From Promethearchaeota archaeon (GTDB lineage: Archaea > Asgardarchaeota > Lokiarchaeia > Sigyniarchaeales > SOKP01), in the NCBI GenBank assembly GCA_019058295.1, contig JAHPZI010000018.1:2134-66133 (forward strand): a DNA stretch of 64,000 nucleotides, read 5' to 3'. Both the position numbers and the translations under genes were made by a program. A model generated the notes under the pieces. That model searched no databases. It was not told the DNA's origin and worked only from the letters and a program-made list of their open reading frames with translations. Of this stretch, positions 30,904-51,869 are shown piece by piece. How positions within the stretch are numbered: the first letter of the stretch is position 1; each line of letters starts with the position of its first letter.

Positions 30904-30907
30904 AATT

Positions 30908-31969: not shown

Positions 31970-32101
31970 GTGAACAATAATATGACTAACTGGTAATTTC
32001 TCTTTATTAATAAGAGCAATTAAATCCTTATGATAATCTCCATCAATTATAAATTTTATTCTAAAATCACTTTTTCTGTTTTTATCTTTTTAAAAAAAAA
32101 T

Positions 32102-33274: not shown

Positions 33275-33313
33275 TATGTTCTACCTCTTTTTTTTTTTTA
33301 TTTTTTTTTTTAT

Positions 33314-34738: not shown

Positions 34739-34761
34739 TCTTAGTCTTTACAAATTTAATT

Positions 34762-36174
34762 TCATTCAATTAATTCGATTTCTTCTTCAATTTCTTCTTT
34801 TTGAGAAACATCAACTTCATGTTCATGATCATTTTCATGCCAGCAGAACGGAAACGATCCAAAGAAATCACCCGTGATATATTCCGCAGTTACACGACAT
34901 CCCCCACCGCAATATTTTAAATGATGGCAAGAGGCACATTTTCCTTTAATCTTCTTTCTATCACGAATATCCCTGTAGAGCTGTGAATTTAATACATCTT
35001 CAAAATCATCCTCCAATGCATTACCAAGAGTCAATGTTGTAGGATATCCCGCAGGGAATATTGTTCCATCTATACCAATTCCCATCATTGTCCTACAAGC
35101 TAAACAACCTACTCCCCATTCAATCGCTGCCAATTCTTTATCATTTTTTGGATGTTCCATAAAGGGCATCATATCATATATTTCATAAGCAGGTAATGTA
35201 CCTGCCTTACCTTTCCTTATCGTCTCAATAGCATGTTTGTATTTGAAATCATACATTTTTTTATATTCTTCTGAATTAAGACCGATTTCATCCCAAAATT
35301 CAGCAGCCCGATTTTGTTTCACTACACATCGAAAATATGGTTGTGATCCCCATTTTTCTGATAATATTTTAATCTCTTCTAATTCATCAATGTTTTGCTT
35401 CATAATTGTAATTGAAGAGCATACAAATATTCCATATTTCAAACAAAGATCTATTGCTTTCTTAGCATAATCTAAGGAATTGGGAAACCCACGAATCTCA
35501 TCATTTTTCTTAGGATCAACACTGTCAAAACTAACAAATATATGACTAATATTGTTATCTTTACACATTTTGGCGAAATCTTCATCGAATCTCACTCCAT
35601 TGGTGATAAGAGCGTGAATATAATCCTTCTCTTTACAAAATCTCATAATCTCACCAATGTCTTTTCTCAAAGTGGGCTCACCACCAAACCATATAAAGCA
35701 GGCATGTCTTCCTTGTTTTCGCAAACCTGTTTCAACATTTTCTATTATTTGACACCATTTCTCTGCTGATAATTCTGGCCGTGCTATTTGATCATCCGCA
35801 GCACAGTGAATACATTTTTGATTACATTTGTCAGTCAAATACATGGCAAAGTGTATATTTCCGGGATGAAACCCCCGCTCTAGTTTTTGCCATGAAACCT
35901 TCAATCGATCCTTGATTTCCTTCAGTTCTATATAACGTTCGACATCAATTCCTAATTTTGTTAAATCTTCTACCATTATTGATTTAAATGCTTCAGGAAT
36001 TATGTCAAAAATACCCAGAACAACATCAGCATCATTAATATAAGCAGCATTCCGATCAAGACATCTTTTTTCTGCAGCCTCTATGATTAATGGTTTCACG
36101 GAAGGACGAAATCCTTGTGGCATTTGTTCTACTATTCTACCAAATAATTTCTGTGTCTCCTTTTCCCATTCCAT
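34762..36174 (-). CDS. PCP_red-like domain + radical SAM + SPASM-domain enzyme
   Basis: 470 aa. N-terminus MEWEKETQKLFGRIVEQMPQGFRPSVKP...AEKRC...IPEAFKSIMVEDLTKLGIDVERY. TDKCNQKCIHCAA (CxxxCxxC). GGEPT. SPASM Cys blocks GVGCLACR... and GKCASCHHLKYCGGGC. Tail PFCWHENDHEHE. Confidence 0.8.
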   Translation of the reverse strand: MEWEKETQKLFGRIVEQMPQGFRPSVKPLIIEAAEKRCLDRNAAYINDADVVLGIFDIIPEAFKSIMVEDLTKLGIDVERYIELKEIKDRLKVSWQKLERGFHPGNIHFAMYLTDKCNQKCIHCAADDQIARPELSAEKWCQIIENVETGLRKQGRHACFIWFGGEPTLRKDIGEIMRFCKEKDYIHALITNGVRFDEDFAKMCKDNNISHIFVSFDSVDPKKNDEIRGFPNSLDYAKKAIDLCLKYGIFVCSSITIMKQNIDELEEIKILSEKWGSQPYFRCVVKQNRAAEFWDEIGLNSEEYKKMYDFKYKHAIETIRKGKAGTLPAYEIYDMMPFMEHPKNDKELAAIEWGVGCLACRTMMGIGIDGTIFPAGYPTTLTLGNALEDDFEDVLNSQLYRDIRDRKKIKGKCASCHHLKYCGGGCRVTAEYITGDFFGSFPFCWHENDHEHEVDVSQKEEIEEEIELIE

Positions 36175-36186
36175 AGAATTTCACCT

Positions 36187-37554
36187 TTAAGCACAATTAT
36201 CATGCTCATGGTCATCATCATGCCAACAAAACGGGAGCTCAGCTAGAAAATCACCAGTTACGGTTTCAGCATGGACCCTACAACCCCCACCACATAAGTC
36301 AAGATGATGACAAGTAGAGCATTTCCCTTTTATTTTTCGATCTCTAATTTTTTTAAACATTTCGGTTTCCATAATTTCATCCCAACTTTGCTCAAGAATG
36401 TTGCCTAAGATTAAATCAGAAGGATAATCACAAGGGAATACATCTCCATTGGTATCAATCCCAGAAATTGAGCGGCAAGCTTGGCATCCTGTGCCCCATT
36501 CGATCGCAGTCCTTTCTTCATCATTTACAGGACACTCCATAAATGGCACCATATCCCATGTATAGAATTTATTAAGCGATGAAGCTTCTCCTTTTCTGAT
36601 AGCTTCTATAGCATGTTTATATTTGAAATCATAGAATTGTCGATATTCATCCATATTTAAGCCAATTTCGTCCCAATTTAAATCGGCCGAACGTTGTTTG
36701 ATCAGGGGTCTGTAAAAGGGAGTTACTCCTCTAGAGTTAAAATATTCCCTTAATTTATCTAATTCATCAAAGTTCTCTTTTTGTGCAGTTACATTAGCAA
36801 TTGTAAAAAGTCCATATTTTGCAGCTAAATCTAACGCTTTTTCCCCTGCTTCGTATGCTTTTGGGTGCCCTCTAATTTTTGCAGCCCGTTTGGGATCTGT
36901 ACTATCATAACTAATAAAAACATGGCTCATTTTAGCATCTGCGCATATTTTCGCCAATTCATCATTAAATAAAATTCCATTGGTCGCAAGTGATTGATAA
37001 TAACCCTTCTCACCGCAATATTTAATTAAATCTTTAAGATCTTTACGAATTGTAGGCTCCCCGCCAAACCATATATAACATCCTCGACGACCACGTTTTC
37101 GTAAGCTTTGTTCAAGATCCTCAATAATTTCAATCCATGTTTCAATGGGTAATTCTGGACGTTTATCCATTACCGAAGCAGCACAATGAAGACAATTTTG
37201 ATTGCATCGGTCAGTGAGATATATAGTAAAATGATAAACCCCGGGTAAAAAGGCACCACTAATTTCATCCCATGTACGTGCATATTTTGTTCTAATTTCT
37301 GATAATTTTACATAGCGATCTGTATCAATATCTAATTTTTTTAAATCTTCGACTACTGCTGGTTGAAATGCCTCGGGTGTTATCTCAAATAGTGCAGAAA
37401 GCAAATCATCTTCACTTACAAATCCAGAATTCCTAAGTCGTGCTGTTTTTTCAGCAGCTTCTCGCAACATAGGCTTAACAGAAGCACGAAATGCCTCAGG
37501 TACTTGATCTGTGATTTTTCCAAACATTTGTTCCATTTCTATATTCCATTCCAT
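36187..37554 (-). CDS. PCP_red-like domain + radical SAM + SPASM-domain enzyme (paralog)
   Basis: 455 aa. Same architecture: TDRCNQNCLHCAA, GGEPT, GTGCQACR, GKCSTCHHLDLCGGGC, tail PFCWHDDDHEHD. Confidence 0.8.
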   Translation of the reverse strand: MEWNIEMEQMFGKITDQVPEAFRASVKPMLREAAEKTARLRNSGFVSEDDLLSALFEITPEAFQPAVVEDLKKLDIDTDRYVKLSEIRTKYARTWDEISGAFLPGVYHFTIYLTDRCNQNCLHCAASVMDKRPELPIETWIEIIEDLEQSLRKRGRRGCYIWFGGEPTIRKDLKDLIKYCGEKGYYQSLATNGILFNDELAKICADAKMSHVFISYDSTDPKRAAKIRGHPKAYEAGEKALDLAAKYGLFTIANVTAQKENFDELDKLREYFNSRGVTPFYRPLIKQRSADLNWDEIGLNMDEYRQFYDFKYKHAIEAIRKGEASSLNKFYTWDMVPFMECPVNDEERTAIEWGTGCQACRSISGIDTNGDVFPCDYPSDLILGNILEQSWDEIMETEMFKKIRDRKIKGKCSTCHHLDLCGGGCRVHAETVTGDFLAELPFCWHDDDHEHDNCA

Positions 37555-38474: not shown

Positions 38475-39965
38475 TTATTTATCTCTCTTTTTAGGATATT
38501 TCGAACTAGATGTTAGAAGCATAGGTGCAGTGCTTAAAAATAATAGCATGTTTGCATAACGAATAAAACCTCCAGAAAAATGTTTCTTATCATAGTTAAT
38601 TACATTATAAAAATAGGATGGTTTAGTTCGCTTGAAAATGTTAACAATCTGCGGAAAAGAATTAAATTTTAGTTTTATTTTAAATTTTTCAGGAGATTCA
38701 TGGGCAGGAGAACCAGGGAAAATATGATAAGGTTCACTCATAATTGTAATTGGTTTGAAATTGGAATTACCATATTTTAAAAGGCATTTAGTCGCAAAAT
38801 GAAAATCCTTAAGAATATCAAACCGATTTTGGAAAGGAAGACCGATAGTTAACCATATCCGTAATAATATTTGAGATAAATTTGCATTTTTTATTAAATC
38901 ATTAATTTGACTTTCTGGAAATTTAAATGTTGGATCACAAGTTTTAGCTATTTTTTGCTGAACTTTAGCTGATAATGTTCGAGGAGAAATACTGATTGAT
39001 GAATATCTACGAGCAAAAGTCTTCTCAAAGATTCTCCACATTTCTTTAGGAAAGGGTAGCCGCCATATCTCTAAATCTCCACTAATATCAATTTTTTCCT
39101 TTTGAATCAGCCCAAATAATTTTTTCCAATATTTTAAATTAGCAGGATATGTACCATGTCCGAAAAAGACACTTGGAACTTTATAATTGTCGAGAATATT
39201 GTGGAGATCTTCTATTATTTTTTCTGGACTTCTGAGAACGACCTCATTTCGACCCGTTAGTTTTTGCTGAGCTCTTTGACCTCCTCCACAAAAAGGACAA
39301 TTAAATGGACAGCCCCTTCCAATTGGAAGATTGAGAGAGATTCCCATAATCTTTCTGCTATACTCAAGATATTGTTTTGCATTATTTAGAAGTGATACAT
39401 TAATAAAATTCAAATCATCCAATGTTTTTGCTGTATAGGAAAGAGAATTAACTTTTATGTGTTTAGAGGTATCTCGATAAGATAAATTGGGAACAGAATC
39501 TAATGATTGATTTTTATTAATCTTTTGAACATATTTTAAAAATGGAACTTCCCCTTCGCCTCTAATTATACCGTCAATTTCTTTATAGTATTTTAATAGT
39601 TCACTATGGTAATATGAAGCACTAAAACCTCCAAGAATTACATTAGCATGGGGATTTACTTTTTTTACGATTCTAGCAACTTCAATAGCACCATTTGCAT
39701 TATGTATCCAATGTAAATCTATTCCACATACATCAAAATTAATATTTTTAAGAAAGTCGGCTAATGACCAATTACGATTTAGATATTGCTCTAATGGATA
39801 ATTTATAATTTTAACTCCAAAACCCCCTTTCTCAAGCAAATCGGCAATGCTAAAAACACCCATTGGAATGAATAAATATTCCCCTCGTTTAAATTTGGAT
39901 CTTTTATTATTAATAGGTTTTACTACTCTAGGTGGATGGATGAGTAAAACATCGTAGCTTTTCAA
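38475..39965 (-). CDS. Class B (B12-binding-domain) radical SAM enzyme
   Basis: 496 aa. B12-type N-terminal domain (PMGVFSIADLLEKGGFGVKIIN...CGIDLHW...ILGGFS...IRGEGE), then GRGCPFNCPFCGG (CxxxCxxC). Confidence 0.75.
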   Translation of the reverse strand: MKSYDVLLIHPPRVVKPINNKRSKFKRGEYLFIPMGVFSIADLLEKGGFGVKIINYPLEQYLNRNWSLADFLKNINFDVCGIDLHWIHNANGAIEVARIVKKVNPHANVILGGFSASYYHSELLKYYKEIDGIIRGEGEVPFLKYVQKINKNQSLDSVPNLSYRDTSKHIKVNSLSYTAKTLDDLNFINVSLLNNAKQYLEYSRKIMGISLNLPIGRGCPFNCPFCGGGQRAQQKLTGRNEVVLRSPEKIIEDLHNILDNYKVPSVFFGHGTYPANLKYWKKLFGLIQKEKIDISGDLEIWRLPFPKEMWRIFEKTFARRYSSISISPRTLSAKVQQKIAKTCDPTFKFPESQINDLIKNANLSQILLRIWLTIGLPFQNRFDILKDFHFATKCLLKYGNSNFKPITIMSEPYHIFPGSPAHESPEKFKIKLKFNSFPQIVNIFKRTKPSYFYNVINYDKKHFSGGFIRYANMLLFLSTAPMLLTSSSKYPKKRDK

Positions 39966-40103
39966 AATGCCAACCGAAATTATGATTAGAAATGAATGTT
40001 AATTAAATTAAGGTTTAAGATATAAATATTAAACTTTGTTACTTATTATTTTGGAAATGTAAATTTTCTATTAATATTAAAAATTAAAGTATCTAAAAAA
40101 CCA

Positions 40104-40123
40104 AAATTTAAATATTTAAATTT
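40104..40123. promoter_or_regulatory. 20-bp perfect A/T palindrome in the divergent intergenic region
   Basis: AAATTTAAATATTTAAATTT equals its own reverse complement. It lies ~30-40 nt upstream of the CDP-alcohol phosphatidyltransferase start and also has TATA-box-like composition. Confidence 0.3.
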
Positions 40124-40152
40124 CAATAGTTTAAATTACTAATTCAGAACTA

Positions 40153-41136
40153 TTGAATAAAATGAGTGATATGGCAAATATTTTAGAATATATGAATTTA
40201 GCAGATTTTTTATTTATTGTTGTATTTCCATCAGTTTTACTTTTACTACTTTTAATTATCTTTATAAGTGGATTATTTAAAGAAAAACCAAAGCATGAGC
40301 TTATGACATTGGATGAATTCATGATGGATTGGCTTAAAGATCACGGACAAGCTCACAAATTGGAAGAACAGTTTGCGAGAATGAAAAAAGATCCAGCAGG
40401 GAAAATTTATATGCCATTAACATATCATGGCGGAATAATTGCTATAAAATGTGGTTTAACTCCAAATAAGGTATCTTATATAAATCTAATTTTATCCTTT
40501 TTCATATTTTGGGCTGTAATAATGATTAGTAAAGGTCATACTCTAAATCTATTTTCTAAACAACCGTACTTTGGCTCTTGGTTTATTCCTCTTGCCTTTT
40601 TAGCCTTATTTACAGGAATTATTGATGGGATTGATGGAGCGATAGCTAGGATATTGGATATAAAGTCTAAAAGTGGTGCGTGGTTAGATAATGTGATTGA
40701 CAGAATTAGTGATATATTATTACTTGTTTGTTTCGTTCCAACTAGTTTTATGGTTGTTTCGATATTAGGATTTAAGTTTGATTTTACATGGATAGTTTGG
40801 ACGAATATTTTCCTAATTTTTCTCTATGAATACATGAGAGCGAGACATGAAGGGTTAGGTTTACATGAAACCAAACCAACTATAGGAGAAAGAATAACTA
40901 GATTTTTTGTAATCTTTATATTCTTTTTAATTTACGGTATTTCGAGCTTCTTTGTATTATTAACAAATTGGATTAATCCCAATGCTACGAAGATATGGAC
41001 TGATTCGCACATTGGCACAATTACTTGGAATATGCTAATTTATCAGATAACTCTATTTTTGATTATGATCTTCTCATTGATTAAATTAGGGAGTTATAGT
41101 TTTAAAAACCTGAAGAAATTGGATAGTGGAGATTAA
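40153..41136 (+). CDS. CDP-alcohol phosphatidyltransferase-family membrane enzyme
   Basis: Complete signature D-x2-DG-x2-AR-x8-G-x3-D-x3-D in IIDGIDGAIARILDIKSKSGAWLDNVIDRISD. Multiple TM segments. The true start may be the ATG at 40162 rather than the TTG at 40153. Confidence 0.85.
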   Translation: MNKMSDMANILEYMNLADFLFIVVFPSVLLLLLLIIFISGLFKEKPKHELMTLDEFMMDWLKDHGQAHKLEEQFARMKKDPAGKIYMPLTYHGGIIAIKCGLTPNKVSYINLILSFFIFWAVIMISKGHTLNLFSKQPYFGSWFIPLAFLALFTGIIDGIDGAIARILDIKSKSGAWLDNVIDRISDILLLVCFVPTSFMVVSILGFKFDFTWIVWTNIFLIFLYEYMRARHEGLGLHETKPTIGERITRFFVIFIFFLIYGISSFFVLLTNWINPNATKIWTDSHIGTITWNMLIYQITLFLIMIFSLIKLGSYSFKNLKKLDSGD

Positions 41137-41239
41137 AAAATAAAAAAAGAGGTTATGAAATATCAATTTCAAAGGTTTTATATACTTAGTTGTACTGGTA
41201 ATCTTTTTTGTTCTATTACATATTTATTTTCCCCCTTAT

Positions 41240-42511
41240 TTGTCATCTGGAACTAAAGAAGCAATAGATACATTCATTGCCGACCCTTTGACTTATTGGT
41301 GGTTTGTATTTCCATTATTTGGATTAATCATGTGGTTAGTATTGATTATATATTATGGAAAATATTTCTTAGCATCATTTGGTCGTGGTTATCGAACCAA
41401 AACACCTTATTATCCAAAAATAAGTATAATGATCGCTTCTAAAAATGAAAGAAAATTATTAGAAAGAACATTAAATTCGATTGTTAAAACAGACTATCCA
41501 AAAGAGAATATCCAAATAATTATAATAACAAGTGGATCAACAGACGATACAACAGAATTTAGTCAAAATTTTGCAAAAGAGCATCATACAATAGATATAG
41601 AAGTGTTATCAGAGAATTTACCTAAAAAAGGAAAGCCTCCAGCTATGAATTACGGTCTAAAATATGTAAAAAATGATATTATTGTCCTTTATGATTCAGG
41701 TTGTATTTTACAAATAGATACATTGAGAAATTTATTATCCCCTTTTCAAAAGAATAAAATTAATGCTGTTATTGGACCTGTTTTAGTTGAAAATTGGAAG
41801 ACTAATACATTGACTAGAGCTATTTACCTTGATTATGCTTTTTTATCTGGTGGTGGATTATTATTTGAATCTAAAAATAGATTAGGTAAATCAGCTTTTT
41901 CATATGGAAGAAATTTTGCTGTTAGGACGAAATACCTTAAGAAATATGGAGGTTTTAATGAAGATTCATGCACAGAAGATCTTTATCTTTCTGTGCTTTT
42001 AAATATGGATGGAATAAAAATTTACTTTTCACCTAAAGCAAAAGTTTATGAATATGTACCTACTACTTGGGAGATCTTAACAAAACAACGAGAACGATGG
42101 CTCGCAGGATATATCTTTGATATGCCACAATTAATGGCAATGGAAGGAGAAAAAAAGAATGGGAAATCGATAATTATTTCAAGAAATATGACAATGACAT
42201 TCATAGGGAATATGGATTCGTGGATGCCCATATTTATTGGATTAGCAATACTCTTTTTCTTAATTGGAGAGTTTTATCTCTTAAGTTGGACCCTCGCTTG
42301 TTTATTTTTTCAATTTGGATTTTTGTTCAATTCAGTACGTAAGTATGGAGATTGGCATATGAGCATTTTGTTTTTATGGCCATTATCGGGTTATATACAT
42401 CTTTATATGTTTCTACATCAGTTCCATTTACCAAGAGAAATAAGTTGGGAAAAAACTCCAATGTTATTAGAAAAACAAGAGGAAGAAATAGAAGCTTTAT
42501 CTGCTAAATAA
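41240..42511 (+). CDS. Family-2 glycosyltransferase, processive-type (QxxRW) with flanking TM segments
   Basis: 423 aa, TTG start. ISIMIASKNE...DYP...IIIITSGSTDDT, YDSG and TEDLY blocks, QRERW (Q-x-x-R-W) motif. One N-terminal and several C-terminal TM segments. Confidence 0.75.
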   Translation: MSSGTKEAIDTFIADPLTYWWFVFPLFGLIMWLVLIIYYGKYFLASFGRGYRTKTPYYPKISIMIASKNERKLLERTLNSIVKTDYPKENIQIIIITSGSTDDTTEFSQNFAKEHHTIDIEVLSENLPKKGKPPAMNYGLKYVKNDIIVLYDSGCILQIDTLRNLLSPFQKNKINAVIGPVLVENWKTNTLTRAIYLDYAFLSGGGLLFESKNRLGKSAFSYGRNFAVRTKYLKKYGGFNEDSCTEDLYLSVLLNMDGIKIYFSPKAKVYEYVPTTWEILTKQRERWLAGYIFDMPQLMAMEGEKKNGKSIIISRNMTMTFIGNMDSWMPIFIGLAILFFLIGEFYLLSWTLACLFFQFGFLFNSVRKYGDWHMSILFLWPLSGYIHLYMFLHQFHLPREISWEKTPMLLEKQEEEIEALSAK

Positions 42512-42644
42512 CTTTGTATAAACACTAATCAATTTTATTTATATGAAATTAAGGTCTCTCTTTAACTATTATCTCTCTATTATATTTTAATAAGATTAAA
42601 AATAAAAAAATAACTACTAAGGTTAATTAAGGAGTATTTTTTTA

Positions 42645-44090
42645 ATGAAAATCAATCTTATTAATCCCGCACCTTCAAAAATAAAAGATGGCCAAACCGA
42701 AACATTGTTTTATGCTTCTGCTCCTCCATTAGGATTAATGTACCTTGCCACATATTTGAAAGATGCAGGTCATAAAATTTCTATTTTAGATCAAGCAGCT
42801 GTTAATTATGAAAATAGAGATGTTATTAATTGGGTTAAAAAGAGAAATCCAGATGTAGTAGGTTTTTCAATTTTATGCGCTTCCGTAGAGAATGCAAAAT
42901 TAATATCTAAAGCATTAAAAACCCTAAATCCGAATCTAAAAATCATTTTTGGGAATTATCTTGCTACATTCTATGCAAGAAAAATCTTAGAACATTATGA
43001 TTGGGTGGATATATGTGTGAGAGGGGATGGTGAAATAACTTTCTCAGAGCTTATTGAAAAAATAGAATTGAATAAAGATCTTAATGATGTCGATGGAATA
43101 ACATACAAACGTAATGGTAAAATTAAAGAGAATAAGAATCGACAGCTATTAAAAAATCTTGATACATTACCATTTCCTGACCAAAAATTGATTCCAAATG
43201 TATATAAGAATCGAATCGGTGGAATTGATGTTTCACCGCGAAAATTTACTACGATGGTTACTTCTCGAGGATGCCCTTTTGGATGCAATTTCTGCGCATG
43301 CACAGCATTCTCTCAAGGGCTATGGAGGACTCGATCAGTAAATAATATATTTGAAGAGATTTGTGAATTAGCTAATCAAGGTTTTCAAGAAATCCTTTTT
43401 GTTGATGATAATTTTACATTAAATACGAAAAGAATTATTAAGTTATGTGATAAAATTAGGAAAGAAAAATTGGATATGGTATTTGTATGTGATGGAAGAG
43501 TAAACAAGAGCTCTATTGGTTTATTAAGAACCATGAAAAAAGCAAAATTTGAAATCTTAATGCTTGGATTAGAAAGTAGTTCTCAAAGAATGTTAGATTT
43601 TTATAATAAAAAAATAACACCACAGATGAGTGAAACTGCTGTGAACAATGCCCGTAAAGCGGGTTTCAAGATGATTGTTGGTTCGTTTATGATTGGTGGA
43701 TTCGATGAAACCTATACTGAGGCAATTAATACTCTTAAATTTATTTCAAAACTTGATATTGATTTTCCTCATATAATTTTTACTCGTGCATTACCTGGAA
43801 CTAAACTTTTCAATAATTTAATTCAAAATAATGTTATAGATGAAGATAAATATTGGGAAAGAGGTGTAGATCTTATTGATTTACCTGGTGCGAAAATGAA
43901 ACGCGAGATAATCTATCAAATAATAAAGGAACAATTCCATAAAAATTTCTTAAGACGAAAATATTTGATTAAAGCTTTTATACGAACAATAATGAGCAAA
44001 TACAGACAAGATATGATTTTAAGTCATCTTAATTTTCATGATATAGATAAATTTGTAAAGTTAATCAATAATCCCCCTGATTTATTTTAG
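42645..44090 (+). CDS. Class B (B12-binding-domain) radical SAM enzyme
   Basis: 481 aa. PPLGLMYLATYLKDAGHKISILD...VVGFSI...VRGDGE, then SRGCPFGCNFCAC. Confidence 0.85.
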   Translation: MKINLINPAPSKIKDGQTETLFYASAPPLGLMYLATYLKDAGHKISILDQAAVNYENRDVINWVKKRNPDVVGFSILCASVENAKLISKALKTLNPNLKIIFGNYLATFYARKILEHYDWVDICVRGDGEITFSELIEKIELNKDLNDVDGITYKRNGKIKENKNRQLLKNLDTLPFPDQKLIPNVYKNRIGGIDVSPRKFTTMVTSRGCPFGCNFCACTAFSQGLWRTRSVNNIFEEICELANQGFQEILFVDDNFTLNTKRIIKLCDKIRKEKLDMVFVCDGRVNKSSIGLLRTMKKAKFEILMLGLESSSQRMLDFYNKKITPQMSETAVNNARKAGFKMIVGSFMIGGFDETYTEAINTLKFISKLDIDFPHIIFTRALPGTKLFNNLIQNNVIDEDKYWERGVDLIDLPGAKMKREIIYQIIKEQFHKNFLRRKYLIKAFIRTIMSKYRQDMILSHLNFHDIDKFVKLINNPPDLF

Positions 44091-44118
44091 TGATAAATTA
44101 AAAATGTGAGATATAAAT

Positions 44119-45624
44119 TTGAAAATTGCGTTAATAAATCCAAGTTTAGAAACAAAAATTTATTCCCCGTGGCCTCCATTAGGAATATTATATTTAGGAA
44201 CAATATTGAAAGAGAATGGGTTTACAGTTAAATTATTGGATGCGGCAGCTAAATTTTATGGAAAAAATGAAGTTTTAAATTGGTTAAAACATGTAAAACC
44301 TGATATAGTAGGTATTTCTGTCTTTACAATAGCATTTCTTCCAGCAATAAATCTCATTAAAGTAATCAAAAACTGGAATCCTTCCATAAAAATCGTAATA
44401 GGGCATTATCATCCCACTATGGAGGCAGAAAACATACTTCGTAAGTATGGAGATTATGTTGATTATTGCGTAAGAGGAGAAGGAGAGTATACTCTCTTAG
44501 AACTATGTGAATTTTTAGATAAGAATGACAATAAATTACCAAATGATATCAAAGGTCTCGCATTTCGAGATTCTAATAAGAAAATTGTTTTAACTCCTGA
44601 AGCTCCTTTAATAATAGATTTGGACTCGCTTCCGTTTCCTGATAGAAGATTGCTTGATTTTGAATATAAATGGAATTTCTCAGGATTTGAGTTCTCGAAA
44701 TCAAAATTAACTTCGCTAGTGTCGTCTCGAGGGTGTCCATTTAATTGTTCATATTGTGCATGTACTAAATTTGCGAAACGTCGATTTAGACCAAGAAGTC
44801 CTGAGAATATTATAAATGAGATGCTTCTAATTCAAAATCATGGGTATACACAATTAAATTTTGTCGATGATAATTTTACATTACAACCGAAAAGAACCAT
44901 AGAAATATGTCGACTAATGAAAAAAGAGAAGATTGATATCAATTGGCATACAGATGGACGAGTTGACCAAACGTCCCAAGAGATGCTGAATCTGATGAAA
45001 AAAGCTGGATGTAAATCGATATGGTTTGGATTTGAAAGTGCAAATCAGAGAATTCTGAATATATATAATAAGAGAACAAAAGTGTCTCAATTCTATGAAG
45101 CGATTCGTAAAACACGGAAAGCAAATATAGAACTTATTGTTGGATTATTTATGCTCGGTGCACCGACAGAAACGTTAGATGAAGTGAAAAGGACTATAGA
45201 ATTTGCAGTTAAATCTGATATCGATGTGCCATTTTTTAATGTTGTAGAGATTTTTTCAGGAACAAAATTTTGGGATGATTACAATTCAAATGGAAACATC
45301 AATCAATATGATAAAGTAAAAGCTCTCGTAGGTGAGGAAATCTATGAAGTTGAGCGATGGGAGACAACAACTAGAGTAATGGACTTTTTATTATCCCCAG
45401 AAGAACGAGAACAAATGTTAAATGAAATTCAAACTGCATACCAAACATTTTTCTCTTTTGAGCGCAAGATGATATTTATGTGGAAGATGCTCTATCGTAC
45501 AGTAAGAAGTAGATTCATGCTAAATATGGCATACAATATTATGAGAAACTTTAAAGGGGCTTTGGGAGCAATATCTGCATTTAGGAATTCTAAACCTCGA
45601 GGTTTTGGTACCTACGATGAGTAA
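44119..45624 (+). CDS. Class B (B12-binding-domain) radical SAM enzyme
   Basis: 501 aa, TTG start where the paralogs have ATG. PPLGILYLGTILKENGFTVKLLD...VRGEGE, then SRGCPFNCSYCAC. Closest paralog is 51872..53350. Confidence 0.85.
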   Translation: MKIALINPSLETKIYSPWPPLGILYLGTILKENGFTVKLLDAAAKFYGKNEVLNWLKHVKPDIVGISVFTIAFLPAINLIKVIKNWNPSIKIVIGHYHPTMEAENILRKYGDYVDYCVRGEGEYTLLELCEFLDKNDNKLPNDIKGLAFRDSNKKIVLTPEAPLIIDLDSLPFPDRRLLDFEYKWNFSGFEFSKSKLTSLVSSRGCPFNCSYCACTKFAKRRFRPRSPENIINEMLLIQNHGYTQLNFVDDNFTLQPKRTIEICRLMKKEKIDINWHTDGRVDQTSQEMLNLMKKAGCKSIWFGFESANQRILNIYNKRTKVSQFYEAIRKTRKANIELIVGLFMLGAPTETLDEVKRTIEFAVKSDIDVPFFNVVEIFSGTKFWDDYNSNGNINQYDKVKALVGEEIYEVERWETTTRVMDFLLSPEEREQMLNEIQTAYQTFFSFERKMIFMWKMLYRTVRSRFMLNMAYNIMRNFKGALGAISAFRNSKPRGFGTYDE

Positions 45625-45644
45625 TTAGATGGGGGATCTTTATT

Positions 45645-47084
45645 ATGAAAATTGCGCTAATTTTTCCGGTTCCGATGGACTTAAAACGAGAAGACCCTCG
45701 TCCCATGTTTTCATCATTTGCGGAACCCTTGGGACTATTATATATCGCAGGAGTCTTAATAGATGGGGGATATGATGTATCGATATTAGATCATGGTGCA
45801 ACAGATTATACATTCGATGATGTATTAAATTGGATAAAAAAACAGAATCCTGATGTCCTTGGTATTTCAGTTTTAACCCGATCTTTTCAATCGGGAATAA
45901 GAATAGCGAAATTAGCAAAAGAGTGGAACCCAAACCTAACCATAATTTTAGGTAATTATCAAACTGTCTGCGCTGAAAGGATATTACAGAAGTATAACTT
46001 CATAGATTTGTGTGTCCGTGGTGAAGGTGAATACACTATGTTAGAGCTACTACCATTGATTCAAAAAAATAACACCAACTATGAGAATATTAAAGGAATA
46101 TATTATAGAAAAAACGGAATTGTCAAATCAACTCCGCCTCGTGAACTAGAAAAAAATCTAGATAAATTCCCAATTCCCAATCGTACATTAATTGAAGGAG
46201 TAAAATATAAAATGTCTATGGGAGGATTAGAGCTTTCTAAAGAGAAATCGGCAACTATTATGATGAGCCGGGGATGTCCTTATCAATGTAGATTCTGTTC
46301 AGTTAATCATGAGAGTTGGAGGCATAGATCAGCTCACAATATAATTCAAGAGCTACATCTTATGGAATCTCAAGGGTATCGAGAAATCATGATTATGGAT
46401 GATAACTTTACAATAAATCCTAAATGGGTAATTGAGATATGCAAAAATATTATGAAAGAAAAAATCGATTTAGTATTTCATTGTGAAGCTAGAATTGAAG
46501 GAACAAAAGAAATGTATGAATATATGAACAGAGCTAATGTTAAAACTATTTTTTATGGTATGGAAAGCGGTAGTCAACGAGTTTTGGATTATTACAAAAA
46601 AAATATTACCCCTGCTCAGTGTAAGTTGGCTTTAAAAAAAGCAAGAAAAGCGGGAATTGATATGTTATTCGCTTCTTTTATTGTTGGTGCCCCAATCGAA
46701 ACAATCAATGATATACAAAAAACAACAAATTTAGCTTTGAGTCTGGACATTGATTATGCGATGTTTCATGTGTTTGAAGTATTTCCAGGTATTAAAATCT
46801 GGGATGAATTAGTAGAACAAAATAAGGTTGATGAAAATAAATATTGGGAATCTGGTGTTCGAGTAGCTGAACTTCCGTTTTATAATATCAATCTTGATGT
46901 TTTAATAGAAACAATAAGAAGAACTTATAAAAAATTTTATTCATTAGCAAGACCAAAATTCATTTTCAAGCAATTTTTAAGGTCAATAAAAAGTAATTAT
47001 CGTCGTGATAAATTAAAAAATCTAGGAAAAGATTTTCATTCATCGTTAAAGATGTTGGAGTCATTAAGTGAAAAAAGATTCTGA
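45645..47084 (+). CDS. Class B (B12-binding-domain) radical SAM enzyme
   Basis: 479 aa. EPLGLLYIAGVLIDGGYDVSILD...VRGEGE, then SRGCPYQCRFCSV. Ends in TGA. Confidence 0.85.
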   Translation: MKIALIFPVPMDLKREDPRPMFSSFAEPLGLLYIAGVLIDGGYDVSILDHGATDYTFDDVLNWIKKQNPDVLGISVLTRSFQSGIRIAKLAKEWNPNLTIILGNYQTVCAERILQKYNFIDLCVRGEGEYTMLELLPLIQKNNTNYENIKGIYYRKNGIVKSTPPRELEKNLDKFPIPNRTLIEGVKYKMSMGGLELSKEKSATIMMSRGCPYQCRFCSVNHESWRHRSAHNIIQELHLMESQGYREIMIMDDNFTINPKWVIEICKNIMKEKIDLVFHCEARIEGTKEMYEYMNRANVKTIFYGMESGSQRVLDYYKKNITPAQCKLALKKARKAGIDMLFASFIVGAPIETINDIQKTTNLALSLDIDYAMFHVFEVFPGIKIWDELVEQNKVDENKYWESGVRVAELPFYNINLDVLIETIRRTYKKFYSLARPKFIFKQFLRSIKSNYRRDKLKNLGKDFHSSLKMLESLSEKRF

Positions 47085-47139: not shown

Positions 47140-47727
47140 TTAGAAAATTATGAAAATTACTACTATAAATATAAGGGAAGCTATCAATGCTATTGCATTA
47201 CCTATAATCCCCAAAATCCCAAAAATGCTTCCCACTTTCTCCAGATTATTTACTGGTTCAGAATTCTTTGCTTTCGCCCTATTCACTCTAGATAAAATTC
47301 CAAATATTGTTCCTACAATATGAACTATTATGAATATAATTATTAAAACTAATAATAATATTAGTAAGTCTTTTGTTTGATAAATAGAGTAATAATTAGA
47401 GTAAAAATTCTGGAAAATTGTTCTATAAACTAAATAATTTAAAATATTAGAACCAATATAGTAACCAACTAATATTATACAAATAGATAATATTCCAAAG
47501 ATTAAACACTTTTTTGAATGTGGACCCGGGATCGTTCTCTCTTTCTTTCTAACTGGAATTTGAATATCAGCGGAAATTGGTTTGGTTCTAGGTATCGCTA
47601 CGTAGTATTGAGTATTATTGGTTCTTGATTGAGAAGTTTTAGAAATAATTGTGAGCTCATTTCCACAGTAAATACAAAACCTTTGATTTGGTATTTTCAA
47701 TTCTTTACCACAATTCGGGCAAAACAT
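47140..47727 (-). CDS. Zinc-ribbon + C-terminal multi-TM (DUF4190-like) membrane protein
   Basis: 195 aa. MFCPNCGKELKIPNQRFCIYCGNEL, then 3-4 TM segments with a GILSRVN..KAK loop. Confidence 0.55.
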   Translation of the reverse strand: MFCPNCGKELKIPNQRFCIYCGNELTIISKTSQSRTNNTQYYVAIPRTKPISADIQIPVRKKERTIPGPHSKKCLIFGILSICIILVGYYIGSNILNYLVYRTIFQNFYSNYYSIYQTKDLLILLLVLIIIFIIVHIVGTIFGILSRVNRAKAKNSEPVNNLEKVGSIFGILGIIGNAIALIASLIFIVVIFIIF

Positions 47728-47777
47728 TTTTTTACATCCAAATAGATTTCTATTAATTTAATATGGATTATTAAAAA

Positions 47778-48326
47778 TTATAAAAATATTAATATTAAAT
47801 TTTTTTCATTTTGTAAATTAATAAATAGTAGAAATGGGAATACAAGAGATATAACTACTAATGCTATTAAATTAATGATCATTCCTATTATCCCAAACAC
47901 GTTTCCAACTTGCTGATAAGTGTTAATTGGTTCCGTCTTATCCGCTTTCACACTTTTTTGTTTAGATAGAATCCCAAATATTAATCCTACCACATTAGTC
48001 GCTAGGCATATTATGAAACCTACAATATACCATCCGAATCTTATTATTGGACCTGATATTATAATTCCAATAATTGCCAATACAATTGAAGTTATTGCAT
48101 AACCTAAACAACGTCTTGAATTTTGGTACAGATCATCTGGCAATGATTTATTAACAGAAATATAAGTATATCCTGAGTCTTTTTGCGATATAGTAGGTGA
48201 TTCATACTGAGGTCTTTCAGTTCTTAATTGAGCTGTTGTAAAAATAATTTTAAGGTCAATTCCACAGATGTGACAAAACCTTTGGTTTGGGTTTACTAAT
48301 TCTGTACCACAGTTTGGGCAAAAAAT
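47778..48326 (-). CDS. Zinc-ribbon + multi-TM membrane protein paralog whose start codon is ATT
   Basis: The ORF track begins at an internal TTG (48143). The frame is open to 48326 and encodes I-FCPNCGTELVNPNQRFCHICGIDL.... The upstream context gataaagtATTttttgcccaaactgtggtacagaattagtaaa equals the paralog context gataaagtATGttttgcccaaactgtggtacagaattagtaaa except for the start-codon G-to-T change. Confidence 0.5.
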   Translation of the reverse strand: MFCPNCGTELVNPNQRFCHICGIDLKIIFTTAQLRTERPQYESPTISQKDSGYTYISVNKSLPDDLYQNSRRCLGYAITSIVLAIIGIIISGPIIRFGWYIVGFIICLATNVVGLIFGILSKQKSVKADKTEPINTYQQVGNVFGIIGMIINLIALVVISLVFPFLLFINLQNEKNLILIFL

Positions 48327-48403
48327 ACTTTATCATCCAAATAGATTTCTATTAAATAATATTATTAAATAAAATTTAAAGATTAGTTTATTAACTAAAA
48401 CTA

Positions 48404-49006
48404 TTAGAGGCTGGCAACTGCGATAACAATCCCAATAATTGTTAGGGCTAATCCCAATTCTATTATATTGAAGCTAAGCCCTAGAATCCCAAACACGCTT
48501 CCAACTGTTTTAACAGAATTTGATGTTTCTGACTTTCCAGCTTTTGTATTATTTACTCTAGATAAAATTCCAAATATTACCCCTACACTATTAGCTAATA
48601 TGGATACTATAAATCCTATTAACCCAACAAACGCATACCTCGAAATATTAATTAATATTAATATAGCACCCCCCGAAAACACACAGAATATTCCTATCGC
48701 AAAAGAAACTATAGAGAAGGCTAAACACTTTTTTGAATATGATCCTACCTCTCTTTTTTTAACTAACATTTGCTGACTAACTGGAAAACTGGTATATACT
48801 GGCGTTGACTGTGATTTAGCTATTGCTGCATCTTGTCCTCTCTCAGTTCTTAATTGAGGTGTTTTAAAATTTATCGGTGTTGGCTGTGATTTAGCTATTG
48901 CTGCATTTTGGCCTCTATTAAGAATAAGTGAAAGGTTAATTCCACAAGTTTGGCAAAATTTTTGGTTTATTTTTACTAATTCTGTACCACAGTTTGGGCA
49001 AAACAT
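48404..49006 (-). CDS. Zinc-ribbon + multi-TM membrane protein paralog
   Basis: 200 aa. MFCPNCGTELVKINQKFCQTCGINL. The linker contains an internal duplication (RGQNAAIAKSQPTP / RGQDAAIAKSQSTP), seen as an exact 23-nt repeat at 48809-48831 and 48884-48906. Confidence 0.55.
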   Translation of the reverse strand: MFCPNCGTELVKINQKFCQTCGINLSLILNRGQNAAIAKSQPTPINFKTPQLRTERGQDAAIAKSQSTPVYTSFPVSQQMLVKKREVGSYSKKCLAFSIVSFAIGIFCVFSGGAILILINISRYAFVGLIGFIVSILANSVGVIFGILSRVNNTKAGKSETSNSVKTVGSVFGILGLSFNIIELGLALTIIGIVIAVASL

Positions 49007-49119: not shown

Positions 49120-50211
49120 TTAAAACTTTTTATCAACCTCTTCTTTTTCAGCTTCATTTAATTGGCGCACTATTTTAGCCGGGGAACCATATGCTATTGA
49201 ATATGGTGGAATATCCTCTGACACGATTGATCCCGCTCCTATAATCGATCCTCGACCAATTGTGACTCCAGGTAATATGATAGAATATGCACCAATTCTC
49301 GCATTTTCGCAAACTTTAATAGGCCCAAAGCTGAATGTCCCATGTTTTATATGCATCGCATTGTGAGTTAAAAATTTAGTACCAATCCCACAACCGCTCC
49401 CATCTTCAAATTCAATTAATTCAGGTAAAAGTGGATCAGGTATTGCTTTTTGAGAAATATGGCAATTTTTTCCTATTTTCATTCCTATAAATCGAAATAA
49501 TTTATTTCTGCCTCGCGGCCATCCAGCTAAATATGTAGTAAGTAAGGAAAATAAATGATTAAACGCTCCTTTGATAAACCAAGAAATTGAAAATCCTTGA
49601 CTCTGAAGATATTTTGCAATAATTAACATTGGGATAGGTGTAAAAAGAAAGTCATCAGTTTCTATATTTATATATGTTATTTTGCCCTTAACTTCAATTT
49701 TAAATTCAGGCCTTTTATGCTTCCAAATTTTTCTCGCCTTTCTTAAATCTTTATAAAAGATAGACAAATCTGTAATAACTACAACTAAGATTAGACTTAG
49801 CGCAAAAATAATAGGTAGAAAGAGTATGATTAACATCAACCTTGTATTAAGTGTTAAATTCTCATTAAATAAGATACCAAAATAAGCATAATAAATTCCG
49901 ATGAATGTATTCAAAACAAATCCTAATAGACTAAAGACATATAGTTTTGAACCGGTTAATTGTCTAGATTTTGCTAAGTTGTATCCAAAGACGTATAATA
50001 GAAGTAGAACAGCATAAGCAATTATAATTCCACCATAGATAAATACACTAAATGTGTAAAAAACTAATGACAACCAAAATACAATAGAATCATATATCAT
50101 ATTAATCCATGGAATTGAAAAAAAAATACGATGTATTACGAATAAAACGACAAGTACTACATTTGAAAGTAAAAGAATAAATGAAATTATAAATCCTTTT
50201 TTCATTTTCAC
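49120..50211 (-). CDS. Membrane-anchored hexapeptide-repeat (LbH) acetyl/acyltransferase
   Basis: 363 aa. About 5 N-terminal TM segments. The C-terminus IGAYSIILPGVTIGRGSIIGAGSIVSEDIPPYSIAYGSPAKIV is typical of the WbbJ/maltose O-acetyltransferase type. Confidence 0.7.
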   Translation of the reverse strand: MKMKKGFIISFILLLSNVVLVVLFVIHRIFFSIPWINMIYDSIVFWLSLVFYTFSVFIYGGIIIAYAVLLLLYVFGYNLAKSRQLTGSKLYVFSLLGFVLNTFIGIYYAYFGILFNENLTLNTRLMLIILFLPIIFALSLILVVVITDLSIFYKDLRKARKIWKHKRPEFKIEVKGKITYINIETDDFLFTPIPMLIIAKYLQSQGFSISWFIKGAFNHLFSLLTTYLAGWPRGRNKLFRFIGMKIGKNCHISQKAIPDPLLPELIEFEDGSGCGIGTKFLTHNAMHIKHGTFSFGPIKVCENARIGAYSIILPGVTIGRGSIIGAGSIVSEDIPPYSIAYGSPAKIVRQLNEAEKEEVDKKF

Positions 50212-50324: not shown

Positions 50325-51095
50325 ATGAACACATTTAATCAGAAAAAGAAGCCAAGAATTTCTATTATCGTACCCACCTACAATGAGGAGAATCATTTAA
50401 AAGAAACATTAATCGCTATTAAAAAGCAAAGATGTGATATTTCTTATGAAATCCTTGTCGCTGATGGAAAAAGCACCGATAAAACCGTTTCTATTGCTGA
50501 AAATTATGCAAAAGTATTTATTTCACCACAAAAAGGTAAGGCCTTTCAATTAAACTATGTTGCACCAAAAACTTCTGGTGATTTACTTATATTTTTAGAT
50601 GCCGATACATTAATAGAACCATTTTTTTTACAGAAAATTCACAAAATTTTCAAAAGAGATAAAAATCTTTTTGCCTGTAGTGCTAGAGTTAAATATTATG
50701 ATGGAAAATGCCTAACCTTTAATTTGGGTTCTCTGACTTTTACTATAACAAGTTATTTTTTTCTTAATATTAATGCGCACTTATATTATTTTTTCAAAAC
50801 GTTATTTGGCTATCCTGAACTTTCAGGCACTAATATAATTGTTAGAAGAGACATATTTTTTAAAGCTGGTGGATTTAAGCAACCACCAGAGTCATTAGGA
50901 ATCGACAAGGTTTTCTCAGATTCCTTATTATATTTGAAAAGAAAACTAAAAAGGGGCAAAATTAAAACCTTAAATTTCATTTCAGTATTTACAAGTGGAA
51001 GACATTTAACCATGCGTCGTAGTTTTAAACGTATTAGCCAATACCATTCTAAAAAAGAGATATATTATGAATTAGCAAAAGAAATAAATAAATGA
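50325..51095 (+). CDS. Family-2 glycosyltransferase (short, non-processive type)
   Basis: 256 aa. ISIIVPTYNEENHL and FLDADT (DxD) motifs. Confidence 0.7.
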   Translation: MNTFNQKKKPRISIIVPTYNEENHLKETLIAIKKQRCDISYEILVADGKSTDKTVSIAENYAKVFISPQKGKAFQLNYVAPKTSGDLLIFLDADTLIEPFFLQKIHKIFKRDKNLFACSARVKYYDGKCLTFNLGSLTFTITSYFFLNINAHLYYFFKTLFGYPELSGTNIIVRRDIFFKAGGFKQPPESLGIDKVFSDSLLYLKRKLKRGKIKTLNFISVFTSGRHLTMRRSFKRISQYHSKKEIYYELAKEINK

Positions 51096-51107
51096 ATTAA
51101 TATTATA

Positions 51108-51869
51108 ATGAAGATTGCACTGACCTTTGATATTGAACGCGATATTCCTACTGTTTTAGATACATATTTTGGAGTGAAAGTTGGATTATTGAAAATATTA
51201 CAAATATTAGATAATTTTAATATCAGAGGAACTTTTTTCTGTACTGGAAATGTTGTTGAGCATCTGCCTGAGCATATAAAATTAATTGAGCGTAAAGGCC
51301 ATGAAATTGCTTGTCATGGTCTAAATCATGAACGATTAAATCAATTGAATTTTAAAGAATGTCAAGAAATAATTGATCAAAACAAAAAGATAATAGAAAA
51401 GACATGTCCAAATTCAGAGATTATTGGTTTTCGAGCTCCTAAATTAAGACCTCCAAAATTTCTTTTCAAAATATTAAGCAATTTAGGATTTAAATATGAT
51501 TCTTCAATCAGATCTCCTGAAAAGTTAAAATCTTATCAAACAAAAGATAATCAAATTCAAGAATTTCATCCTTCAAATTTCAATATATTATTTAGATTAC
51601 CTCAACCTATGGGTGATTCTTTAATACGAAAATGGATCTTTAAAAAAGAGGTAGTTATATTATTATTTCATCCTTTTGAAGCAATAGATATGAAAAATTT
51701 AATATTCAATATAAAAAATGTTTCCGGTATATTTAAAAATGTTTTCTTTAGACCAGATCGTTTGGGTCATACAGGAAATAAATTTAATACAGGATTGAGC
51801 AACTTTATCAAGGAATCTATTTCTAGAAAAGCCGAATTTGTTAGCTTAAAACAATTAATTAGTGAATGA
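51108..51869 (+). CDS. Polysaccharide deacetylase (CE4 / NodB-homology) family protein
   Basis: 253 aa. LTFDIERD start, GTFFCTG, and HEIACHGLNH (His-His metal motif). Confidence 0.7.
   Translation: MKIALTFDIERDIPTVLDTYFGVKVGLLKILQILDNFNIRGTFFCTGNVVEHLPEHIKLIERKGHEIACHGLNHERLNQLNFKECQEIIDQNKKIIEKTCPNSEIIGFRAPKLRPPKFLFKILSNLGFKYDSSIRSPEKLKSYQTKDNQIQEFHPSNFNILFRLPQPMGDSLIRKWIFKKEVVILLFHPFEAIDMKNLIFNIKNVSGIFKNVFFRPDRLGHTGNKFNTGLSNFIKESISRKAEFVSLKQLISE

Follow-up and report, generated by a model that had tools for sequence, protein, structure and literature searches.

In hopanoid head-group synthesis, the family 2 glycosyltransferase (GT2) HpnI adds GlcNAc, HpnK deacetylates it, and the radical S-adenosylmethionine enzyme (rSAM) HpnJ ring-contracts the sugar to a cyclitol ether; analogously to HpnJ, Cds turns a glucose head group into calditol (PMC13459092). 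The class B rSAMs include the non-methylating enzymes BchE, HpnJ, OxsB and AprD4 (PMC13459092), and HpnJ, AprD4 and OxsB are sugar remodellers, not lipid methylases. The B12-rSAMs Grs, Gmm, Cgm and Ted modify lipid tails and have homologs in Asgardarchaeota (Garcia et al., in which Gmm and Ted are named). Here we analysed a 64,000-nucleotide stretch (the window) of contig JAHPZI010000018.1 from a Promethearchaeota archaeon, in which five genes encode a CDP-alcohol phosphotransferase (the transferase), a cellulose-synthase-like membrane GT2 and three B12-binding rSAMs, R1, R2 and R3 (the trio; Table 1).

We found that the five genes fall into two modules within a mosaic island, namely the transferase-GT2 pair (the core), to which relatives add a LuxE-like enzyme, and the accessory R1-R2-R3 trio. 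The island is almost confined to Asgard archaea, and we consider it plausible, if slightly short of probable, that it makes and tailors a lipid-anchored glycoconjugate, which would be either a phospholipid with a glycosylated head group or a short glycan linked to lipid. This reading builds on the domains, motifs and folds of the proteins, the paralogy of the transferase with AIPS, the Asgard distribution, the modular synteny and the spacing of R1-R3; the substrates, the order of the steps and the type of rSAM reaction are what we infer from them. Its logic comes from the parallel to the succession of HpnI (GT2), HpnK (deacetylase) and HpnJ (B12-rSAM), and to calditol synthase.

Like the HpnI/HpnK/HpnJ system, the window holds a GT2, a small GT2 (GT2b), a CE4 deacetylase and HpnJ-like B12-rSAMs, and HpnJ ranks first or second among the profiles matched by R1-R3 and by two further B12-rSAMs of the window, Rb51 and Rb55 (149-182 bits against a cut-off of 577). 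The two systems differ in the acceptor, a hopanoid there and putatively a phospholipid here, and in the number of rSAMs, one there against three or four paralogs here. The HpnI profile reached 35.8 bits in the island (cut-off 310), and the deacetylase is of the CE4 and not the HpnK type; HpnK is YdjC-like. All enzymes of the island fall into known superfamilies, and none is itself characterised or has a characterised homolog.

The CDP-alcohol phosphotransferase

The transferase matched PF01066 (CDP-OH_P_transf) with 47.7 bits against a gathering threshold of 22. A regular-expression search of the translation located the catalytic signature DGIDGAIARILDIKSKSGAWLDNVID at amino acids 158-183 (nt 40624-40701, + strand), which reads DGIDGAIAR-x8-G-x3-D-x3-D and places the protein in the PF01066 superfamily. 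The pattern D158-x2-D161-G-x2-A-R166-x8-G175-x3-D179-x3-D183 was invariant in 16 orthologs (alignment A1). The ATG at 40162 is the probable start codon; it would give 324 aa, the length of an identical database protein. An extra N-terminal transmembrane (TM) helix and a conserved cytosolic segment (aa ~50-100) precede the 6-TM catalytic core, and this near-invariant segment of ~50 aa, DWLKDHGQAHKLEEQF...MKKDPAG.LYMPITY, was found only in the transferase family.

AIPS, PIP synthase and DIPP synthase/AF2299 share the signature motif and the 6-TM catalytic fold, but they are ~190-220 aa long against 327 aa here, and the transferase lies far below their equivalog cut-offs of 170-580 bits. Against the AIPS equivalog (NF040950) it scored 61.9 bits with a cut-off of 180 (coverage 20-163/191), which leaves it outside that family; the NCBIfam scores were 46.4 bits for PIPS and 43.3 bits for DIPPS, and the PC, PGP and PS synthases also stayed below AIPS. 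In PDB sequence-profile searches the nearest solved relatives were AF2299, PIP synthases and DIPP synthase, with PGP and PS synthases behind. The AlphaFold2 (AF2) model (pLDDT 76.8) gave AF2299, PIPS and DIPPS as the nearest Foldseek matches (TM-score 0.35-0.46, probability 1.00).

To describe the family, we searched several collections. A total of 246 homologs were found, of which the best 120 are all at least 61% identical and come, where a source name is given, from Asgard archaea. A genome-collection scan yielded 59 orthologous loci at 57-85% identity, of which all that bear a taxon label belong to Asgard metagenome-assembled genomes (MAGs), and below 57% the identity fell sharply to ~30%. 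These ~30% matches are AIPS-like proteins of 206-219 aa that score 120-140 bits over full length against the AIPS equivalog. In a profile search of 1.84 billion representatives, ~5 strong full-length clusters (50% identity) scored at least 247 bits, followed by ~7 distant full-length relatives at 54-97 bits and then generic enzymes of ~200 aa at ~60 bits. The family covers ~57 species-level genomes labelled Loki-/Promethearchaeota, Thor-, Hod-, Hermod- and Odinarchaeota; it is nearly confined to Asgard archaea. In the searchable literature, no earlier description was found of this family, of the GT2 family, of their pairing, of the link to LuxE or of the multi-rSAM cassettes.

The MAGs DZ1M.51, DZ2M.348 and Bin_204 each carry both such an AIPS-like gene and a transferase ortholog. 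The preliminary description of this locus had asked whether the transferase clusters tightly with a housekeeping synthase, and it does not, as judged by its AIPS score and by the separate AIPS-like gene in the same genomes. These sequence comparisons point to a specialised paralog distinct from the housekeeping AIPS, set apart by its N-terminal TM helix, its ~50-aa segment, its pairing with the GT2 and the co-existing AIPS-like gene.

One divergent relative, in locus L102 (2606-3610, - strand), carries DGVDGALAT in place of DGxDGxxAR, so that the conserved Arg becomes Thr. It scored just under the Pfam threshold (20 versus 22 bits), and this substitution may have altered its chemistry.

The membrane GT2

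The GT2 matched Glyco_tranf_2_3 (PF13641, 119 bits), Glyco_trans_2_3 (PF13632, 77 bits) and GT21 (38.7 bits). It has the GT-A motif set of cellulose-synthase-like GT2s (D, DxD-type, TED and QxxRW), with DSG at aa 152-154, TED at aa 245-247 (nt 41972-41980) and QRERW at aa 283-287 (nt 42086-42100). The open reading frame (ORF) called from the TTG at 41240 is 423 aa long, and the frame is open from 41159. The 27 codons ahead of the TTG (41159-41239) specify the TM helix that is conserved at the N terminus of the 450-aa orthologs, and the ATC (Ile) at 41162 aligns with the Met of the ortholog P0400. Because these upstream codons encode that helix, the GT2 probably starts at the non-canonical ATC, which would give ~449 aa and a gap of ~25 nt to the transferase. 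L005, L006 and L002 likewise have Ile in place of this Met, which hints at non-canonical initiation overlooked by gene callers. A frameshift or an N-terminal truncation of the GT2 was rejected as less likely, given the continuous frame and the relatives with this exchange.

The best NCBIfam match of the GT2 was PgaC/IcaA (TIGR03937), whose cut-off lies well above the 112.2 bits obtained, so that the GT2 is not placed in that family. At E<=1e-20 we found 153 homologs, and all source names given are Asgard, including Heimdall-, Hel- and Odinarchaeota. The AF2 model (pLDDT 74.7) is predicted to have ~4-5 TM helices, and Foldseek matched it to PcManGT (4e-16), HAS (2e-14), BcsA (8e-13) and Chs1 (5e-11), with the interfacial helix and TM bundle seen in BcsA, HAS and Chs. 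PgaC/IcaA, NodC, HAS, BcsA, Chs and PcManGT all share the GT-A motifs, the interfacial helix and the C-terminal TM bundle with the GT2 (Foldseek E 1e-16 to 1e-10), although the structurally aligned residues are only 15-18% identical. On this model the fold class is established, and the GT2 is set apart from these enzymes by its ~4-5 TM helices, its almost Asgard-only distribution and its CDP-alcohol transferase partner.

These features could also belong to a processive PNAG- or chitin-like synthase. Its product would be a secreted or surface polysaccharide, partly deacetylated by CE4, O-acetylated and possibly C-methylated by the rSAMs, with the transferase adding a phospho-alcohol substituent or a lipid primer or anchor. 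The PgaC/IcaA match, the TED and QRERW motifs, the resemblance to HAS, BcsA and Chs at a TM-score of ~0.5 and the Joint Genome Institute (JGI) label "cellulose synthase/PNAG synthase-like" on the orthologs agree with this, as do the recurrent CE4 deacetylase and the acetyltransferase, Glf and sulfotransferase genes of the island. CE4 is the protein family of the PgaB/IcaB deacetylase domains. However, the GT2 is far under the PgaC cut-off of 422, ~4-5 TM helices are few for a translocation channel, and the deacetylase lies within 10 kb in just 15 of 43 core loci. Processivity is predicted here from the QxxRW motif only, which is also present in non-processive lipid glycosyltransferases, and the closest solved structure, PcManGT, is non-processive. 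Moreover, we know of no member of the CDP-alcohol phosphotransferase family that decorates a free polysaccharide. Taken together, we regard a free polysaccharide as quite unlikely and keep the lipid-anchored glycoconjugate as the preferred product.

Gene order in related loci

Gene order was compared across 57 de-duplicated loci (numbered with the prefix L); denominators vary per feature, and neighbour counts cover the 10-kb flanks of the core. The results showed that the GT2 adjoins the transferase in 48 of 53 loci, with a gap of 2-80 nt or an overlap in the relatives, and that a LuxE-like adenylating enzyme (PF04443) comes next in 34 of 49. The trio follows the core in 10 of 45 loci, and its order R1-R2-R3 is kept in every locus that has it (gaps of -4 to 87 nt in relatives). 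Both the adjacency of the transferase and GT2 and the order of the trio are far beyond chance, and the GT2 family co-evolves with the transferase. Where LuxE is present near the trio, the trio stands directly after it, and L101 has the full arrangement, transferase-GT2-x-LuxE-R1-R2-R3. Some close relatives have, in addition, a gene on the opposite strand between the GT2 and LuxE. An uninterrupted run of all five genes is limited to the window, L006, L007 and L054, and these four loci are without LuxE.

The preliminary description had taken the five genes for a candidate operon. In the relatives they do not form one conserved unit; what is conserved is the pair, with or without LuxE. The pairing and the constant trio order were borne out in the relatives; the five-gene unit was not, beyond the few loci just named. 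The same description had counted an independent occurrence of the rSAMs as evidence against it, and we did find this in part, since two lineages have LuxE-R1-R2-R3 but lack both the transferase and the GT2 in the surrounding 10 kb. These are L100 (on a 1.17-Mb contig) and L103 (MAG BC1), in which a phosphorylase gene precedes LuxE; the transferase-GT2 pair of MAG BC1 lies on a separate contig (L060). These loci show that the trio can stand apart from the pair and that LuxE is its closest companion.

A glycogen-phosphorylase-family gene (PF00343) was also seen upstream of the transferase in L003, L051 and L052 (labelled Hodarchaeota), and it is this gene that stands directly upstream of LuxE in L100 and L103. 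Excision or relocation of the transferase and GT2 from an ancestral phosphorylase-transferase-GT2-LuxE arrangement would fit this pattern. In a separate observation, MAG DZ2M.219 carries two complete transferase-GT2-LuxE-R1-R2-R3 loci, L005 and L033, whose transferases are 85% and 65% identical to that of the window, either by duplication or transfer or as a mixed bin.

In the window, the coordinates, the common + strand and the gaps given in the preliminary description proved right in essence ("19-133" nt); by ORF coordinates the gaps are 103, 133, 28 and 20 nt. The GC content is ~30% for the window and 14-35% between the genes (16-22% in the three longer gaps), and no tRNA or Rfam match was found in the window. 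The transferase and GT2 are probably transcriptionally coupled, given the short gap that the ATC start would leave, and the gaps of 28 and 20 nt are consistent with a single R1-R2-R3 transcript. The gap between the GT2 and R1 (17% GC) is the place where relatives have LuxE. It contains TATA-like stretches and T-runs, and because the intergenic regions are so AT-rich, such TATA-like matches are uninformative.

Around the core, the hexapeptide O-acetyltransferase-like gene Hex is found in 27 of 43 loci and GT2b in 23, in addition to the CE4 deacetylase (Deac) counted above. A cassette of a GT2, an rSAM and a hydrolase occurs in 16 of 43. A mutual exclusion of the trio and this cassette (GT2c330-rSAM343-hydrolase; 0 versus 16 loci) is not claimed, as the cassette starts at the locus edge in L005 and L044.

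Could the adjacency be meaningless, with the trio having landed beside the pair in the lineage of the window in a genome rich in rSAMs, as Asgard genomes are? The 11 rSAM genes in the 64-kb window, and a trio that is separable from the pair and missing from most core loci, would fit such an accident. We nevertheless find it very improbable. The association of rSAMs with the core spans 36-88% identity and genomes of 30% and 56% GC, and independent rearrangements keep R-subfamily rSAMs by the transferase-GT2 pair, Hex, GT2b and Deac (L102, L109, L086-L089, L108). In L102 (56% GC), a full-length transferase (36% over 315 aa, including the N-terminal extension) overlaps a GT2 (39%) in the company of a LuxE paralog, Hex, an R2-like (55%), an R1-like (49%) and a third B12-rSAM. 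L109 reads GT2b-Hex-Rb51 (64%)-Rdiv (62%)-GT4-R1-like-unk37-like-transferase (63%)-GT2 (71%), with three B12-rSAMs upstream of the pair, and a second type of triplet (~40% to R1) adjoins Deac-Glf-GT2b-Hex in L086-L089, L040 and L042. Because R-subfamily rSAMs persist by the core through rearrangement and deep divergence, we regard the association as a probable functional link, though not as a fixed operon.

The B12-radical-SAM trio

The domain and motif assignments of the preliminary description were confirmed throughout: all Pfam matches exceeded the gathering thresholds, and the transferase signature, QRERW and the three CxxxCxxC motifs are present. The three rSAMs are indeed paralogous class B enzymes with B12-binding (PF02310, 71-80 bits) and Radical_SAM (PF04055, 77-104 bits) domains (80.5 and 82.6 bits in R1) and 36-41% mutual identity. 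Orthologs of each are 66-88% identical to the window counterpart (66-85% for R1, which is always first in the trio). Since orthologs are this close and paralogs this distant, the triplication is old, older than the sampled lineages. For R2, we found ~47 ortholog clusters at >=60% identity, and the named ones are Asgard; the mean column identity of its alignment (A2) is 84%. A metagenome scan with this alignment, whose peptide patterns were saturated, returned 15 loci, of which one was a true ortholog, at a contig edge.

Further, we compared the trio with curated profiles. The best matches were BchE (TIGR02026) at 174-218 bits (cut-off 481.35) and HpnJ (TIGR03471) at 166-182 bits (cut-off 577.6), with R1 at 174 and 166 bits, both under the cut-offs. 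The preliminary description had likened the trio to the hopanoid methylases HpnP and HpnR, and this likeness was not found: HpnR scored 116-127 bits against a cut-off of 650, and HpnP was absent among the listed NCBIfam matches of R1-R3. The nearest PDB structures of R2 were AprD4, 9ccb, OxsB and TokK, with CysS weaker. The enzymes nearest to the trio by profile and structure are mostly non-methylating or act on sugars. In TokK/ThnK, CysS and GenK-type sets, several class B rSAMs or iterative action build alkyl branches, but the likeness of R2 to TokK and CysS is weak (E 1e-10 and 5e-5, partial coverage), and no NRPS, PKS or RiPP precursor gene lies by the trio.

The trio might instead act on the isoprenoid tails of archaeol or glycerol dialkyl glycerol tetraethers by methylation, desaturation or cyclisation, its adjacency to the core reflecting a general membrane-lipid neighbourhood. 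GrsA/B, Gmm, Cgm, the tetraether methylase and Ted are, like R1-R3, archaeal class B rSAMs of ~480-500 aa that diversify lipids, and the characterised archaeal membrane-lipid B12-rSAMs that we found in the literature (Grs, Gmm, Cgm, Ted) are all tail-acting. The separability of the trio from the pair agrees with this, as do the non-Asgard R2 relatives (~42%), which stand alone in housekeeping contexts, as lipid-tail rSAMs often do, and the match of the neighbouring B12-rSAM Rdiv to TIGR04190 (248 bits); a 493-aa rSAM neighbouring these relatives matches no named family. However, R1-R3 score higher with BchE and HpnJ (166-218 bits) than with TIGR04190 (103-130 bits), a profile that we take to cover Grs-type enzymes (a text search for Ta0216/TIGR04190 gave nothing). 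Their context is different too. The known enzymes act on biphytanyl tails and stand alone or by Tes, Gms, Grs or Hgs, whereas the constant partners of the trio are LuxE, glycan-tailoring genes (glycosyltransferases among them) and a deacetylase. Where the trio is decoupled, its surroundings are carbohydrate metabolism and not lipid genes, and no Tes, Gms or GGR gene was recognised by the trio. We therefore consider tail modification unlikely and prefer a role on the glycoconjugate; our comparison of R1-R3 with Grs, Gmm, Cgm, Ted and Cds covers their published descriptions and gene contexts.

Neighbouring genes in the window

Table 1. Coordinates of the genes of the island and of neighbouring features in the window.
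Feature	Position (nt)	Strand	Remarks
U32/ABBA cluster	27352-37554	-	two U32 (one SCP2-fused), ABBA aromatic prenyltransferase, B12-rSAM, two SPASM rSAMs
Rdiv, fourth B12-rSAM (TIGR04190/Ta0216-like)	38475..39965	-	TIGR04190 248 bits, cut-off 500
Divergent intergenic region, Rdiv to transferase	39966..40152	.	187 nt, 16% GC
CDP-alcohol phosphotransferase	40153..41136	+	327-aa ORF, PF01066
Cellulose-synthase-like membrane GT2	41240..42511 from TTG; probable 41162..42511	+	Pfam Glyco_tranf_2_3
R1, B12-binding rSAM, 481 aa	42645..44090	+	CPFGCNFC at nt 43272-43295
R2, B12-binding rSAM, 501 aa	44119..45624	+	CPFNCSYC at nt 44734-44757
R3, B12-binding rSAM, 479 aa	45645..47084	+	CPYQCRFC at nt 46275-46298
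Three paralogous zinc-ribbon + TM small proteins	47140..49006	-	Pfam Zn_Ribbon_1 / DUF7575
Hexapeptide O-acetyltransferase-like (Hex)	49120-50211	-	Pfam/NCBIfam
Small GT2b	50325-51095	+	Pfam/NCBIfam
CE4 polysaccharide deacetylase (Deac)	51108-51869	+	Pfam/NCBIfam
Rb51, B12-rSAM, closest paralog of R2 (45%)	51872-53350	-	Pfam/NCBIfam, paralog identities
Rb55, B12-rSAM	55010-56464		best profile HpnJ, 149 bits

Upstream of the transferase, the divergent neighbour across the spacer was present as the preliminary description had reported, and it is itself a B12-rSAM (Rdiv). Rdiv orthologs (62-79%) adjoin the transferase-GT2 core in several arrangements, in L109 on the same strand and upstream. Beyond Rdiv lies the U32/ABBA cluster, which also holds a 353-aa gene of no recognised family. 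The cluster looks like an anaerobic pathway to a prenylated aromatic, perhaps quinone-like compound; its U32 proteins, one of them fused to the lipid-binding domain SCP2, recall O2-independent hydroxylation of the UbiU/UbiV/UbiT type.

A functional coupling of this cluster to the five genes had been suggested, and the co-localisation is in keeping with it: in 12 of 29 loci the cluster is no more than 10 kb from the core, and loci with the trio have it more often than those without (6/9 versus 7/34, Fisher p=0.014). One could propose that the trio, perhaps with LuxE, serves the cluster and that together they build a prenylated aromatic, quinone-like lipid that the transferase and GT2 may conjugate. 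This would be in keeping with the gene composition of the cluster and with the faint similarity of the LuxE-like enzyme to the aryl-acid adenylating DhbE/EntE and to PaaK. However, these PDB matches of LuxE fall short of significance (E 0.2-0.7). In addition, L035, L044, L049, L100 and L103 have the trio but not the cluster, L012, L026, L028, L031, L032, L048 and L050 have the cluster but not the trio, and the cluster takes up different positions and orientations around the core. We judge this proposal improbable.

Downstream of the trio, homologs of the zinc-ribbon proteins (28-75%) flank the core or the trio in most loci, and L101 has ~8 tandem copies at 12090-20414. Rb51 is convergent with Deac, and this adjacency is kept in the window, L006, L007 and L108. 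Glf (UDP-galactopyranose mutase, 240 bits against 304) lies between GT2b and Deac in L015, L021, L034 and L045, and a sulfotransferase belongs to the tailoring module of some loci (e.g., L018, 14409-15530); the product of those lineages would therefore carry galactofuranose and sulfate. Neither Glf nor a sulfotransferase was recognised in the window.

Two further observations concern the distal part of the window. Rb55 and the small genes at 53614-54108 and 56712-57224 form a mini-module that recurs by the core in L025, L033, L057, L087, L089 and L101. At 58956-60797 and 60907-62754 lie tandem paralogs of 613 and 615 aa with weak radical-SAM matches (Pfam ~21 bits; HpnJ 31-35), and a 66% ortholog stands upstream of the island in L006 and L007.

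A possible route to a lipid-anchored glycoconjugate

In the route that we propose, the transferase would first make a phosphodiester-linked lipid distinct from the product of the housekeeping AIPS-like enzyme; the nearest relatives of the transferase use inositol phosphate or CDP-inositol. The GT2 would then glycosylate this lipid at the cytoplasmic face of the membrane, probably from UDP-GlcNAc or UDP-hexose. Thereafter, the sugar would be tailored by the CE4 deacetylase, the O-acetyltransferase and the small GT2, and in relatives also by Glf, the sulfotransferase and the LuxE-like enzyme, which may activate acyl or aryl acids. Finally, R1-R2-R3 and Rb51 would alter the sugar or an acyl decoration by radical chemistry, which could be C-methylation, ring contraction or deoxygenation.

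Several observations weigh against this reading. Transcriptional read-through across the GT2-R1 gap is no more than a possibility, and although LuxE is the most constant partner of the trio, no LuxE homolog or remnant was found in that gap or in the 64-kb window. The trio is absent in 35 of the 45 loci and is flanked in L100 and L103 by an amylase and NDP-sugar pyrophosphorylases; because it can be absent or decoupled, its dependence on the transferase product is not obligatory in cis. The trio and the Hex module are negatively associated when the 10-kb flanks are counted (p=0.008), possibly as an artefact of distance. The stand-alone non-Asgard relatives of R2 point the same way. The system is dispensable, since two closed genomes, those of P. 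syntrophicum MK-D1 and Ca. Harpocratesius repetitus, show an AIPS-like gene but no transferase ortholog. Lastly, since no component reaches a curated equivalog cut-off, no substrate is established.

A more specific form of the lipid-anchored glycoconjugate would be a surface glycolipid resembling a glycosylphosphatidylinositol (GPI) anchor or a lipoglycan in most Asgard lineages, analogous but not homologous to the early steps of eukaryotic GPI synthesis; we offer it as a speculation with little probability of being right. Here an inositol-type phospholipid synthase would be followed by transfer of GlcNAc or hexose by the GT2 and by CE4 de-N-acetylation, then by acylation through LuxE-like activation and the hexapeptide transferase. 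The B12-rSAMs would last produce a carbocyclic (calditol- or cyclitol-like) or C-methylated head group new to lipidomes. The two closed Lokiarchaeia genomes scanned apparently lack such a GPI-like route. A literature search (Asgard with CDP-alcohol transferase, LuxE and head groups; GlcN-archaetidylinositol) found nothing relevant.

If the product proves to be a routine surface glycan, the finding would be a useful annotation and not a discovery. The island predicts, organism by organism, where the product should be present, and MK-D1 and Ca. H. repetitus appear to be without it. It offers clonable candidates for the synthesis of Asgard polar lipids or lipoglycans and for new B12-rSAM chemistry on sugars or acyl groups.

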